Positions 18,101 through 61,900 of a stretch of 64,000 nucleotides of DNA are shown here, piece by piece. The position numbers and the translations under genes are program-made. The DNA is from Eledone cirrhosa (taxonomy: Eukaryota), in contig OZ024755.1 of assembly GCA_964016885.1 (NCBI GenBank), positions 19,344,001 to 19,408,000 on the forward strand. The letters are read 5' to 3'. The notes under the pieces were generated by a model. It saw nothing but the letters and a program-made list of their open reading frames with translations, searched no databases and was not told where the DNA came from. Position 1 is the stretch's first letter. The number at the start of each line of letters is the position of its first letter.

Positions 18101-21100
18101 ATAACAGCATTTTTTACCTGATGCTGTCATTCCTGAAACAAGATCAACTTACTTCAGGAAATTTGTGTGCATAGTTATATGCCAGTTTGCCATGGGTTTG
18201 ATATACTTGCATTTGTACGGACCCTGATTATCCCTTTTGTGGACATTCTTAAGAACAGAATCTTCCTCTGAAGAGTCTAATAGGTATGTTTCTACGGTAG
18301 GCTATAAACTTCATGTATCCAGTTTCTGAATTATGAACATACTTAATGATGAAACACAGTGTAAGAAATAAATTTTGTTGTTAAATATCTTGCTTTCTCC
18401 ACCATATATTTCTGCATATACCTGCTCTATTTAAACTCTCCTTAAATACTAACTCCACTCTAATATTTAATCTCACAGCTTTAAGCATTGAGCATGTTTT
18501 GTTTTGTCTAAAGCATCTAACATATTATATCATAGTTCCTTGTCCTCTATTCTTATGATATATGACTCCTATTTTGATGATTTCCCTTGAATGAAACAGT
18601 TCTAGTCCTGTAGAAGCCATTTCTATATTAAACATTTATACTCTATGTATTGAGTACCTTACTTACTGTGGTTACCTCTGATTGAACCCGGGATACACAC
18701 ACACACACACATATATATATATGGCTTAGTGGTTAGAGCATTGGCCTTGCAATCAAAAGGTTGTGAGTTCAATTCTCAGGCCGGGTGATGTGTTGTTTCC
18801 TTGAGCAAGACACTTTATTTCACATTGCTCCAGTTTACTCAGCTGTAGAAATGAGATGATAGGGACTGGGGTCCCTATCATTCCACTGCAAAGTGGCCAT
18901 GGAGGTCCCACAGCAAAAAAGCACCCAGCACTCACTGTAAATGAGGTTGGTGTTAGGAAGGGCATCCAGCTGTAGAAATCAAGCCAGAATCAGTTCCCGT
19001 CCCACCCTTGCAAGCAGGGAAAAGCGGACGTAAAATGAAATGATGAAATGATGATGATATATCTATATATATATATCACAAAATATGGATAAAAATAAAT
19101 CATCCCAATCTTATTATACCATAAAAATCTCAATGAACATTAAGGGCTAAAATCCAAATTATATATATATATATATATATCCTTCATCTCTTGAAGTGTA
19201 AATATATGAAATTAAGATTTACTCACAGATCTTCCTTTTCACTATTGTAACCAACTATTTCGGTAACTTCCCACTCTCCTTGAGTTAGTACTAATTGCTT
19301 TCCTCGTTGTGTAATCTGAAATATGAAGATGATATAGAGATAGAGGAGAGGCATATTGATAATTCTTAAGTAACCAGGTGAACATGATAAAATAAGAACA
19401 AACAAAAACACTCATGAAAACCCCCAAAGAGACAAAATCTCAAAAACACAAAACTCCCCCCAAAACAGTCCCCCAAAAAACAAAAACATGCACAAAAACA
19501 ATAAAAAAACAACAAAAAATGAGGGAACTTACAGGATTAATTGATACTTGACAAATGTGTTTATAATGTCCACTTTTGCCATCGTTGACAGGTAGCCTGA
19601 TAAAGTATTTGTTTTTCTCGTAAACCAAGAACGGTTGAGGCTACAAATAAAAAGTGAAACATTTGTTTTGGGATATTTGATGAATGTTGAAAAATGTTTG
19701 GATTAATTATCTAACCTGTTGACTGCTGCATATATTTTACACGGCTATTGTTACTGTGACAATAGTCACCCTTGTCTGTGTCTATAGTTACATATTTCTT
19801 ACACTGGTATAAGAAGACAGATTTATAAATGAATGGTATAATTAACCTGTTGACTGCCATATATATTTTACACAGCTACAGTTGCTGTGCTGGGTTTTTC
19901 CCCCAGTAAAATGACTATTTTTTAAAACAAACATTTATTAACAACACATATTTGATTGATTGACAAATGTCACATCAATAAACTAGTAACCCCATCTAGC
20001 TTTAAAGTTATGAACTGTTGGAAACGAGTTCATAACTTTGAAGTTATGACTGTTGGAAAAGAGTTCAAACATGTTAGGGTGAATTATCTCATCTGGGGTA
20101 TTGGAATGCAGACATGTTCGGACAAGATATCTCGTCTATGGCACTGAAGAGGTTAAAGGTGAAGTGCTTTTCTTTTCTTTTCCATAATTTTAGCAGGGTA
20201 TTTTTTTCTGGTTGGATACTCAGCCTATCGCCAACCATTCTACAGTGAGGACTGGGTGAATTATTCATGCCACCAGTAGTAGAGAAGTTGTCTTACCACT
20301 CTTATATGGGGCTGACGTGGGCTCTGTAAGCCGTAGTGAAGGCAACCTGTCTAGGAGAACAGACACTCCAAATAAGAACTAATATGTCTGCCCTGTGTAA
20401 GGTAAAATATAAGATGAAATGGAAGAAATGTTTTATGAGGAAACACTTTCAGAATAGATTTAATTTTTAGCCAGCTTGTTGTAAAATGAACTTCTGAGAG
20501 GAATTTTATCAGGAGATATAAATTTTTTTTTCTAGGCTCTCTCCAAAAATATGAATGATTGTTTTCCATATATGTAAATATTTTCTGAGATCCCAGAAAA
20601 TTCCTGGGTCCAACTACAATGTACCCCCTTGCATCCTCCTCTCATAGGACCTGATTGGAAAAATTTGTAAATTAATAATTTGGAATTTACCGTTTCCACC
20701 CAACCGTGTTGTTTCTTTTCTTCAGTACTCTGTAATTAGAAATAAAACAAGAAATAAGCAGAGTTAATATAATAAATTAGTTAGCAATAGTTATCAGTTA
20801 TAATAATTGTTTCTACTTTTGGCACAAGGCCAGCAATTATCCCTGTGCATTACTGGTACTTTAGTTTATCGATCCCATAAGGATGAAAGGTAAAGTTAAC
20901 CTCGACGGGATTTGAACTCAGACCGTAAGGGAATGTAACTATGCAGGAAAATAATATCATACAATATATATATTTATAATGCTTCCCAAAATTCGCCAAC
21001 ACTACACCTGATATTCCGCCTCCACACACACACACAGATGTATATGTGTGTATATCATGACTCATACACTGTTCACTTTCCTTGTACTATACATGCACCT

Positions 21101-58904: not shown

Positions 58905-61900
58905 AGGAGAGGGAGAGAGAGAGAGAGAGAGAGCATGTGAGTGTATGTTTGAGGGATGTGTGCGTGAGAGAGGGCGAGAGAGAGAAAGATTGTGTGAGTG
59001 TATTGTTAGAGGGATGCGTGCATGAGAGAGAGAGAGAGAGAGTGGGAGAGAGAGAGAGAGTGGGAGAGAGAGAGATAGTGGAAGAGAGAGAGAGAGCGGG
59101 AGAGAGCGGGAGAGAGAGAGAGAGAGAGAGAGCGGGAGAGAGAGAGAGAGAGAGAGCGGGAGAGAGAGAGAGAGAGAGAGCAGGAGAGAGAGAGAGAGAG
59201 AGAGTGGTGGAGAGAGAGAGAGAGAGAGAGAGAGTGTGGGGGAGAGAGAAAGAAAGAGAGTGAGAGAAATGGAGAGATTGTGTGAGTGTATTGTTAGAGT
59301 GATGCGTGCAGCATGACAGAGAGAGAGAGAAGGAGAAGGGGGAATTACTACTACTGGATAAGATAGAAGAAGAGAAAGAACTATGAGTTCAGTGGAATGG
59401 CAGAAAGCCAATTGTATGTAATATTGGAGTTAGCTTGTTTCTATATTTACAAGTCAGCACACTTCCATGAAATAGCTTGGCTTGTGTCGTCTTCTATTTG
59501 AAGGGGAAACATGAGTAGATAACTGTGTCAAAAGATCTAAGTTAAGAAAACATGATTTCACTGAGTACACCTGAGTGTGTGTGTGTGTTTGTATGTGTGT
59601 GAGTGTGTGACTGTGTGAGTGAGTGAGTGAGTGAGTGAGTGTGTTTTAGTATGATGTCTGTATGTGTTTGTGTGTGACTGTGTGAGTGAGTGAGTGAGTG
59701 AGTGTGTGTTTGAGTATGATGGCTGTATGTGTTTGTGTGAGTGTGTGACTGTGTGAGTGAGTGAGTGAGTGTGTGTGTTTGAGTATGATGTCTGTATGTG
59801 TGTGTGTGTGTGTGTGTATGTGCATCTCTGTGTAGATTTGAGTATGTGTGGTGTGTGTGTCTCACTGTGCATGTGAATGAGTGTGTGTGTGTCAGTGGAT
59901 GTGTGTGTGTGTGTGTGTGCGTGTCAGTGGATGTGTGTGTATGTTTGTGTGTGTGTGTGTCAGTGGATGTGTGCGTGTATGTTTGTGTGTATGTGTGTGT
60001 GTGTGTGTATGTGTGTGCGTGTCAGTGGATGTGTGTGTGTGTGTGTATGTTTGTGTGTATGTGTGTGTGTGTGTCAGCGGATGTGTGTGTGTGTGTATGT
60101 TTGTGTGTATGTGTGTATGTGTGTGTGTCAGTGGATGTGTGTGTATGTTTGTGATTATCTTTTTCATCTTTTATTTTTGCAAAGGGAGGTAAGAAAGATA
60201 TTGACTATAATGTATCCAATAAGAATTGAATGGTAAACATCACCATTATAGGAGGTGGTGTTGGTGGTGGTGGTGTTGGTGATGGTGGTGGTGATGGTGT
60301 TGTTGGTGATGGTGGTGGTGGTGGTGTTGGTGGTGGTGGTATTGGTGGTGTTGGTGGTGGTGGTGTTGGTGGTGGTGGTGGTGGTGGTGGTGGTGGTGGT
60401 GGTGGTGGTGGTGTTGGTGGTGGTGTTGGTGGTGGTGTTGGTGGTGTTGGTGGTGTTGGTGGTGGTGGTATTGGTGGTGTTGGTGATAGTGGTGGTGGTG
60501 GTGTTGGTGGTGTTGGTGTTGTTGTTGTTGGTGGTGGTGGTGGTGATGGTGATGTTGGTGTTGGTGATAGTGGTGGTGTTGGTGTTGGTGGTATTGGTGG
60601 TGTTGGTGGTGGTGGTGTTGGTGGTGGTGGTGGTGGTGGTGTTGGTGGTGTTGGTGTTGTTGTTGTTGGTGGTGGTGGTGGTGATGGTGATGGTGTTGGT
60701 GATAGTGGTGGTGTTGGTGTTGGTGGTGGTGGTATTGGTGGTGTTGGTGGTGGTGGTGTTGGTGGTGGTGGTGGTGGTGGTGGTGGTGGTGGTGTTGGTG
60801 GTGGTGGTGGTGTTGGTGGTGGTGGTGTTGGTGATGGTGGTGGTGTTGGTGGTGTTGGTGGTGGTGGTGATGGTGGTGGTGATGGTGGTGGTGGTATTGG
60901 TGGTGTTGGTGTTGTTGTTGTTGGTGGTGGTGGTGGTGATGGTGATGGTGGTGTTGGTGTTGGTGATAGTGGTGGTGTTGGTGTTGGTGGTGGTGGTGGT
61001 GTTGGTGATAGTGGTGGTGGTGATGGTGGTAGTGGCGGTGTTGGCAGTGGTGGTGAATGTGTTGTTGGTGATGGTGATGGTGTTGGGGCAGTCCTTGACA
61101 GTGTAACATAAACTGAAAGGGATAAGAAGTTATCAGGTTATAATCACACATATATAAATATATATGTGTGTGTGTGGCATGTATATAAGTTATATATATA
61201 TATATATATATATATATATATATATATATGTGTGTGTGTATGTGTATGTGTGTGTGTGGCGTGTATATAAGTTATATATATATATATACATATATATATA
61301 TATAAAAATATATATATATGTATACATACACACACACACACACATATATCTATATATACACACACACACACACATATATATATATATATATCCCTCACTG
61401 TTCTACAGGCAAGTTCAGCCACCCCCACCTCTCACCCACTGCCATGATAGACTTAATTGTGTTTACAAGAAATTTTGACCAATCTTCTTGACAACTACAA
61501 TCTTCCCATATAAGGAGGTACCCCTAGAAAAGTTTGGCTATTTATTTACCAGGCTAAAAATTCTAATTTATTCCAGAAATAGCCGTCGAAACGGCTTGAA
61601 CTCTGCCGTCGGGGTCTTGAACATTTTCCTATTACCCACTCTACTACCCTAAGTATTGAGTACTCTGGTGCGTCATGGTCCATCTGGTTCCTTACCACAA
61701 CTCCGTTATATATATATATATACATATATATATAGACACACATATATAGACACACACACATACATATATATATATAGACACACAAACACATATATATATA
61801 TATATATAGACACACACACATATATAGACACACACATACACATATATATATATAGACACACACATATATATATATACACACACACACACACATATATATA

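Follow-up and report, generated by a model that had tools for sequence, protein, structure and literature searches.

The window analysed here, a stretch of 64,000 nucleotides of Eledone cirrhosa DNA, contains eight copies of a short bulged hairpin bounded by the boxes ACTC and GAGT, which raises the question of what elements carry this hairpin and what it does for them. A first-pass annotation had described it as a single 3' hairpin shared by divergent element families, and had suggested that it is an RNA signal, for example for recognition by a reverse transcriptase (RT) or endonuclease.

Hairpin sites in the window and across the genome

All eight sites are present where they had been reported, and fall into families A to D. 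Family A has a hairpin at 48944..48969 (+), recognised by sequence and by a pairing descriptor, another at 61638..61663 (+) within a 5'-truncated stub (about 61395-61709) and one from a subfamily at 57280..57302 (+) within a diverged fold-back stub (about 57150-57350). Family B, whose whole copies carry a Hydra-type ORF, is found on the minus strand at 41997..42018 and, as a variant within a fold-back stub (about 45692-45892), at 45754..45775. The latter had been reported at 45756-45775; the hairpin is there, but its third inner pair is an A.C mismatch. Family C is found at 44677..44698 (+), with a C-UUCG-G loop, and at 45614..45633 (+), where the hammerhead-like core upstream has decayed (about 45537-45563); here too the hairpin is present, but its closing box is GAGC and not GAGT. 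Family D, again with a Hydra-type ORF in whole copies, is represented at 18640..18657 (+) by a form that was rightly called shortened, its inner stem having collapsed, with a decayed hammerhead core upstream (18574-18596). The reported placing was also borne out: the hairpin follows a hammerhead-like core and precedes the microsatellite junction by 45-75 nt. Seven sites in the window pair at the first two inner positions according to the descriptor, which excludes site 45614, against 0-1 per shuffle in 10 first-order shuffles.

Two stubs illustrate the arrangement. The family A stub at 48808..49017 (+), a Hydra-type Penelope-like element (PLE) whose ends were mapped on whole copies, has two 60-nt arms (48808-48867 and 48879-48938) of 100% complementarity and (TA)n at both ends. 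Its left arm halts before the hairpin (end 1), while its right arm passes through the hairpin and halts at end 2. It contains the 3' half of the family A hammerhead, recognised by sequence as GAAA, stem III and a stem I strand (48896..48924, +), with cleavage predicted at GUC after 48918; the full core is present in copies L026, L131 and L138. The family B stub at 41930..42351 (-) has 151-nt arms that are 98% complementary. Its hammerhead cores lie at 42084-42124 (-) and 42250-42290 (+); end 2 is at 41930 and end 1 at 42351.

The motif is abundant in the genome. The pattern ACTCTACN{3,9}GTATTGAGT has 57,229 exact matches, compared with 5 for the reversed control, and its G form has 7,564, compared with 614. 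Forty evenly spaced 10-kb stretches yielded 41 box pairs selected on sequence only, 22 of which pair at the first two inner positions (0-5 in shuffles); a simple repeat follows within 25-130 nt of the hairpin in a raw count of 19 of these 22. An unbulged ACTCG-TTTT-CGAGT hairpin belonging to another repeat (9 matches in 400 kb) does not obey the pairing rule and was left out. The motif was absent from all 80 copies of six other hammerhead-bearing end families, mostly unassigned to a clade, and from the 1.5 kb after the domain in all 30 members of other PLE clades recovered by a Pfam GIY-YIG search; three apparent links to GIY-YIG ORFs of other clades proved to be chance neighbours in (TA)n. 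A search of Rfam returned simple-repeat and sub-threshold matches only, with no hammerhead match, and the viral contigs searched contained no relatives.

Host elements of the Hydra clade

Three of the four families in the window are ends of Hydra-clade PLEs. The traced families thus belong to one clade, and are not the divergent families that had been supposed. In family C, none of 20 + 5 loci has an ORF beyond the tail, and the family is possibly non-autonomous. Family A encodes a single ORF of 719 aa, with YRDD at 348, NVIY at 590 and YIG at 606, which represents an RT whose GIY-YIG endonuclease is C-terminal. A Pfam search with this protein gave no match. Compared with its N-terminal and RT part, families B and D give 36-50% and about 52%. 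The protein has RLRWR at 35 (the RWK motif in an RWR variant) and, at 117, DKT instead of DKG; among 120 homologues, RW[KR] is found in 114 and DK[TS] in 118. The CxCX5C linker is CNCPDRSIC at 572, the CxxC is CNLC at 670 and the CxH is CKH at 698. There is only one Cys between NVIY and YIG, so that by sequence no CCHH lies inside the endonuclease.

The protein motifs, the hammerhead in the pLTR and the (TA)n targets are those of the C-terminal EN+ PLEs of the Hydra clade, as set out in the passages considered of Craig et al. (2021, PMC8557442), as are the inverted, 5'-truncated arm and the one-sided tail. The hammerhead here is of type I, its core and stems having been found by pattern and by eye, and is a ribozyme by sequence prediction. 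Two features differ from that account. The tail is 55-95 nt here and 30-40 bp there; and the tandem period of family A is about 3.5 kb, because its 3' UTR is 0.75-1.2 kb, compared with the 'generally <3 kb' that is a typical but not a defining trait of the clade.

Three other identities for the hairpin were considered and rejected. It is not hammerhead stem III, since the bases before it are not constant and the real core is found 45-110 nt further upstream. A Helitron 3' hairpin and a SECIS element were dropped when the RT ORFs were found. As a separate observation, ACTC/GAGT does form stem III in several Hydra hammerheads.

Covariation, leader order and insertion ends

The proposal that a conserved structure with covariation belongs to these elements holds up in 72 family hairpins, selected on their outer boxes only, and on a protein tree. 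Canonical pairing is found at the bulge-closing pair 1 in 70 of 72 hairpins, at pair 2 in 48 of 67 (with U.U in 15 of the 67) and at pair 3 in 35 of 43, each with p<=5e-5 by permutation. The 2-nt bulge register gives 113/134, compared with 30-45 in other registers. TT is the commonest bulge, as had been noted, but is not constant (TT 46, TC 14, TA 12). On a 37-family protein tree, which took in octopus-type and metagenomic relatives only, pair 1 changed seven times on each side and seven times jointly, so that 7/7 changes are compensatory; six of six independent pairs agree (p=0.031). Pairs 2 and 3 did not reach significance on the tree. Folding is weak (-3.7 to -5 kcal/mol, z from -2.3 to +0.4): the bulge-closing pair exceeds a probability of 0.5 in only 23/72, and the minimum-energy fold of the 48944 copy differs from the hairpin. 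Ten G.U and three A.C pairs give thin evidence on strand, and do not separate RNA from sense single-stranded DNA. A hand-picked 28-row alignment (99.4% paired) serves as illustration only.

The description of a single 3' hairpin was correct as to the structure and its tie to the elements, but not as to number or position. In whole copies of families A and B the hammerhead is followed by hairpin 1 and then, after 55-95 nt, by hairpin 2 and the start codon, so that the 5' leader carries two near-identical hairpins. The motif is found at the 3' end of an insertion only where the optional tail, of which it is a part, is present: among 26 ends chosen by endonuclease domain, 13 lack it, 12 have it and 1 has it interrupted. 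The window displays hairpin 1 alone, because this is the hairpin that sits within the known PLE 'tail'. Metagenomic Hydra relatives have the motif in 48 of 52 leaders and two hairpins in 30, compared with 31 among 518 ORF windows and 46 among 1040 shuffles. In family D the second hairpin is present only in deviant form, yet end 2 is sharp; in family C, one of two read-through copies has a second box pair.

Such a leader location could mean that the hairpins control expression, by acting on translation of the uncapped, ribozyme-cut RNA, through feedback binding, or as an internal promoter, with the nearby insertion ends being coincidental. Hairpin 2 mostly ends 13-40 nt ahead of the start codon, and the internal promoter of D. 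virilis Penelope lies in the same region (PMC2377424). We nevertheless give this explanation very little credence, because the ends track both hairpins across spacings of 55 to 95 nt, and because a 531-nt tandem unit with no ORF retains the pair.

Indeed, 116 of 126 non-internal family A copies end <=7 nt 5' of a hairpin, although a strict end rule puts 34 of 128 beyond 12 nt. Family A uses only two of 17 leader TA sites. In the metagenomes, 14 of 16 informative copies end <=9 nt 5' of hairpin 1 or 2, where 5.3 would be expected for ends on any leader TA (P=4e-6). Insertion junctions share 2-3 nt of TA. Among 72 fold-back pairs, 58 join end 1 to end 2, two join end 1 to end 1 and none joins end 2 to end 2, so that mirror-image insertions typically have one end of each kind.

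The short stubs are nearly symmetric fold-backs, in which the shorter arm halts just before hairpin 1. This is what would be seen if the hairpins were stop signals, a single cDNA folding back and its second-strand synthesis halting just before the hairpin. We regard this as highly unlikely. It gives no reason for the first end, too, being set by a hairpin; and whole elements have the reverse order, with the body at end 1 and the inverted arm at end 2, and therefore either both sites act as starts, or the copy runs past hairpin 1 and halts at hairpin 2.

A candidate signal for two RT starts

From the sequence evidence, the motif is most likely a recognition signal for the RT or endonuclease, as first suggested. 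More specifically, it is the first of two conserved bulged leader hairpins, just 5' of either of which copies end, and we consider it probable that each docks the RT on the element's RNA and would thereby fix one of two internal starts.

The end positions and the one-of-each pairing would fit equally well if the motif acted in DNA, with an intermediate, single- or double-stranded, in which the GIY-YIG endonuclease recognises the motif and cuts at the TA just 5' of it; the ends would then mark where the DNA was cut and not where the RT began. The outer boxes hardly vary (G-C in 69/72), which suits such a site. In the passages considered, Craig et al. (PMC8557442) ascribe the tail to endonuclease resolution, and Frangieh et al. 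(PMC11167929) cite the D. virilis tail as needed for endonuclease recognition. This reading is nonetheless unlikely: a duplex site is hard to square with an inner stem that covaries while loop length is free, and the sole in vitro work on PLEs, in the same passages of PMC11167929, maps the tail ends to RT starts.

Docking of the RT could operate as follows. The endonuclease would cut both strands of the (TA)n target, with two protein units sharing a single RNA, one on hairpin 2 and the other on hairpin 1. For each unit, extension of one DNA end would begin at a UA lying 3-8 nt 5' of its own hairpin, and the two cDNAs would then be joined head to head. The arm begun at hairpin 2 would copy hairpin 1, which would become the tail, and hairpin 2 would not be copied into an end. 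That the tandem RNA pair in this way loads two RT units onto one RNA and sets both starts, priming both ends of a double-strand break from a single template, seems to us about evenly balanced.

Small bulged stem-loops from which the element's own RT selects its template and start are familiar from LINE/SINE 3' ends and hepadnaviral epsilon. Those signals are single and serve one start, whereas the hairpins here are paired, lie outside the copied end, and apparently serve both sides of the break. Another close parallel is Poseidon_Ac, whose tail is bounded by two internal RT starts that lie downstream of the hammerhead, and in which cutting and extension take place on both strands of the target (Frangieh et al., 2024, PMC11167929); the passages considered leave the RT binding motif undefined. 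The Poseidon_Ac starts lie inside the ORF, at an AC-rich stem-loop and without target homology, whereas here each end has one copy of the conserved, duplicated leader hairpin 3' of it and the junctions share TA. By eye, three of the six new Hydra consensi in PMC8557442 have the hairpin (Hydra-2_Amil, Hydra-1_Ajap, Hydra-2_Ajap), two have it partly and one has no recognisable copy; the words 'hairpin' and 'stem-loop' are absent from the main text of that paper. Metazoan non-LTR retrozymes are non-coding hammerhead tandem units thought to be moved by PLEs (PMC7229834; preprint 10.64898/2026.07.22.740005), and the retrozyme-like non-coding tandem unit found here retains both hairpins. The main texts of those papers do not use the word 'hairpin', and the passages considered name no cis signal for the RT. 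Within the text passages covered, a literature search found no printed description of the hairpin pair.

The motif bears on how PLEs choose their template, and on why they have one-sided tails and mirror-image arms. Hydra elements and their non-coding passengers can be traced by it, and it offers a way into how retrozyme-like RNAs make use of PLE enzymes. A motif of 20-30 nt at a fixed distance from each end also opens these questions to direct tests by mutagenesis in telomerase's sister group. If the proposal for two RT units is true, the Penelope tail and the fold-back insertions would have the hairpin pair as their cis signal, and about 100 nt would form a transferable cassette that makes an RNA a substrate for a telomerase-related RT.

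Hydra-clade elements carry the hairpin twice

The eight sites at which the first-pass annotation placed a bulged hairpin (ACTC...GAGT) are all present in the window. They belong to four families of stubs: A (48944, 57280 and 61638), B (41999 and 45756, both on the minus strand), C (44677 and 45614) and D (18640). All are truncated stubs that sit in TA or CA microsatellites, and many have a mirror-image arm. The conserved structure stands, but it is not the single 3′ hairpin that had been supposed: whole elements carry the motif twice, and in the 5′ leader. Whole copies of family A run as follows: hammerhead, 25 nt, hairpin 1, 78 nt, hairpin 2 and start codon, with 165 nt from the start of hairpin 1 to the start codon. 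In family B the second hairpin is canonical and lies at 92–95 nt; in family D the only one, at 70–71 nt, is deviant.

Whole copies of family A contain a 719-aa ORF with RWR, DKT, CxCX5C, CxxC and CxH and without CCHH. Read-through copies of families B and D lead into Hydra-type ORFs, respectively 36–50% and about 52% identical to it. On the basis of motifs, families A, B and D are assigned to the Hydra clade of Penelope-like elements (PLEs), which have a C-terminal endonuclease. No ORF was found in the 25 family C loci searched. In a tandem array on one contig (loci L132–L133, G000:C1:91470000-91489800), four or more whole units of family A follow one another with a period of about 3.5 kb; their open frames range from 660 codons (cut off by the edge of the locus) to 786. 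Family A looks recently active.

Outside this genome, 43 relatives were aligned and 78 metagenomic loci fetched (51 clusters), giving 52 usable leaders. The outer boxes (ACTC/GAGT or GCTC/GAGC) are found in 48 of the 52, and twice within 170 nt in 30 of these 48, compared with 31/518 ORF windows, 9/52 reverse strands and 46/1040 shuffles. The commonest metagenomic form is GCTC-stem-loop-stem-2 nt-GAGC-AC; in the ACTC/GAGT variant seen in the window, the outer pair is A-U instead. Craig et al. (PMC8557442) give six Hydra consensi; inspected by eye, three show a clear copy (one from a coral, two from sea cucumber), two a partial copy and one none. In six other hammerhead-bearing end families of the Eledone cirrhosa genome, none of 80 copies has the motif.

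Within the 3.0-Gb genome, exact matches to one form of the motif number 57,229, and its reversed pattern gives 5; a G-started form gives 7,564 against 614. In evenly spaced stretches totalling 400 kb, 22 of 41 box pairs are paired at inner positions 1 and 2 (0–5 in ten shuffles). An unbulged hairpin, ACTCG-TTTT-CGAGT, occurs in a frequent repeat of ~150 nt (loci L308, L311, L340 and L343), whose flanks mark it as unrelated.

Two non-coding tandem units, with ends like those of Hydra elements, are candidate non-autonomous passengers. In the first, of 531 nt (L238:1500-2110; no ORF >33 aa), a hammerhead-like core and both hairpins are preserved; the second, of 572 nt (L256:1500-2160), has hairpin 1 and a deviant second hairpin.

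Covariation and folding

Covariation, proposed as a check in the first-pass annotation, was analysed in 72 hairpins. They were chosen solely by their outer boxes and position, each cluster contributing one at each position. Pair 1, the inner pair closing the bulge, is canonical in 70/72 (50 C-G, 20 U-A; permutation mean 55.9), and the next inner pairs, 2 and 3, in 48/67 (mean 27.9) and 35/43 (mean 16.6), each with p<=5e-5. A bulge of 2 nt makes 113 of 134 cells canonical; other registers give 30–45. Permutation takes no account of kinship, and changes were therefore also traced along a FastTree protein tree from which two clusters of doubtful label had been dropped. On the tree of 33 families, each side of pair 1 changes six times, all six jointly, and independent pairs agree in 5/5 (p=0.0625); pairs 2 and 3 have no change in the wrong direction and are not significant. 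With three more Eledone cirrhosa families and a short-loop row (37 rows), pair 1 has seven changes on each side and seven joint, and independent pairs agree in 6/6 (p=0.031).

Taken alone, the hairpin folds weakly (-3.7 to -5 kcal/mol), and U.U stands at pair 2 in 15 cases. This fits a motif stabilised by protein, yet it is also a reason for caution. In the minimum-energy fold of locus L131:4405-4530, the 5′ arm of hairpin 1 and the 3′ arm of hairpin 2 form a duplex with each other; the boxes common to both hairpins would allow such a long-range alternative form.

Positions of insertion ends

Seven of 133 family A copies continue into the ORF. The remaining 126 comprise 58 with an end no more than 7 nt 5′ of hairpin 1 (end 1), 58 with an end no more than 5 nt 5′ of hairpin 2 (end 2) and 10 that end elsewhere, the junction being blurred by about 3 nt through shared TA bases; 2 of 17 leader TA sites are used as ends. 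A strict end rule gives modes at -5 and -3, with 34/128 beyond 12 nt, for which subfamily differences near the end are a candidate explanation. Ends are also bimodal in family B (24/33 within 12 nt) and family D (16/26).

As the hairpin pattern had itself been used to fetch many of the loci, ends were checked in 30 loci picked by their endonuclease domain: a hammerhead is present in 26, with 13 stopping before hairpin 1, 12 before hairpin 2 and one interrupted. For 31 metagenomic copies a reference was available; leaving out eight cut by contig ends, six with a reference below 93% and one reading on, the 16 that stay include 14 whose end lies no more than 9 nt 5′ of a hairpin (5.3 expected on any leader TA, P=4e-6).

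Among 72 fold-back insertions, 58 combine an end 1 with an end 2, two have end 1 on both sides, none has end 2 on both, and 12 are unresolved or internal. In the 28 from loci not fetched by hairpin, the first three counts are 23, 1 and 0.

Several neighbouring features were seen in the window. Opposite the 57280 stub, a 28-nt inverted family A tail end forms a perfect hairpin over a (TA)n run (57324-57412). A fold-back stub of another PLE-type family (45916-46074), with one short and one long arm, lacks the motif; in other copies of that family the hammerhead lies about 165–240 nt upstream. Hammerhead-bearing stubs of other families lie at 44790-44975 (+; core at 44879) and 49770-49890 (-; core at 49878). 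In the (TA)n beside the 48944 stub is a DDE transposase fragment (49054-49640, -; Pfam DDE_3, E 0.0016, under the cut-off), presumably Tc1/mariner-like. DPPIV_N exons (Pfam) at 23498-23956 (-) and 14851-15174 (-), with E of 1.7e-14 and 5e-4, mark a dipeptidyl peptidase IV-like host gene, and some element stubs may lie inside its introns.

A possible role in priming

The Hydra clade is known, and the tail (a one-sided extra stretch), fold-back and hammerhead of such elements are described (PMC8557442). In the article texts searched there was no mention of a doubled hairpin or of its register to both ends, and a search of Rfam gave no entry for the motif.

The Poseidon protein cuts both strands of its target and extends them, and the two internal sites at which reverse transcription begins set the limits of the tail (PMC11167929). 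If this holds for Hydra-type elements, each element end would be a start site. Reverse transcriptase reads RNA from 3′ to 5′, and therefore each hairpin would sit immediately beyond the stretch whose copying begins at its start site. On the simplest reading, the hairpin is a docking site that would place the active site 3–8 nt upstream, at a UA able to pair with the cut (TA)n end. Binding of the hairpin, its stoichiometry and recognition as RNA rather than DNA are inferred; the main rival is that the endonuclease recognises the motif in a DNA intermediate.

With docking on RNA, two hairpins would provide two starts, and the finding of one end of each kind per insertion suggests that both are used in one event, one on each side of the break. 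The arm begun at hairpin 2 would then carry hairpin 1 within its tail, which is the form seen in the window.
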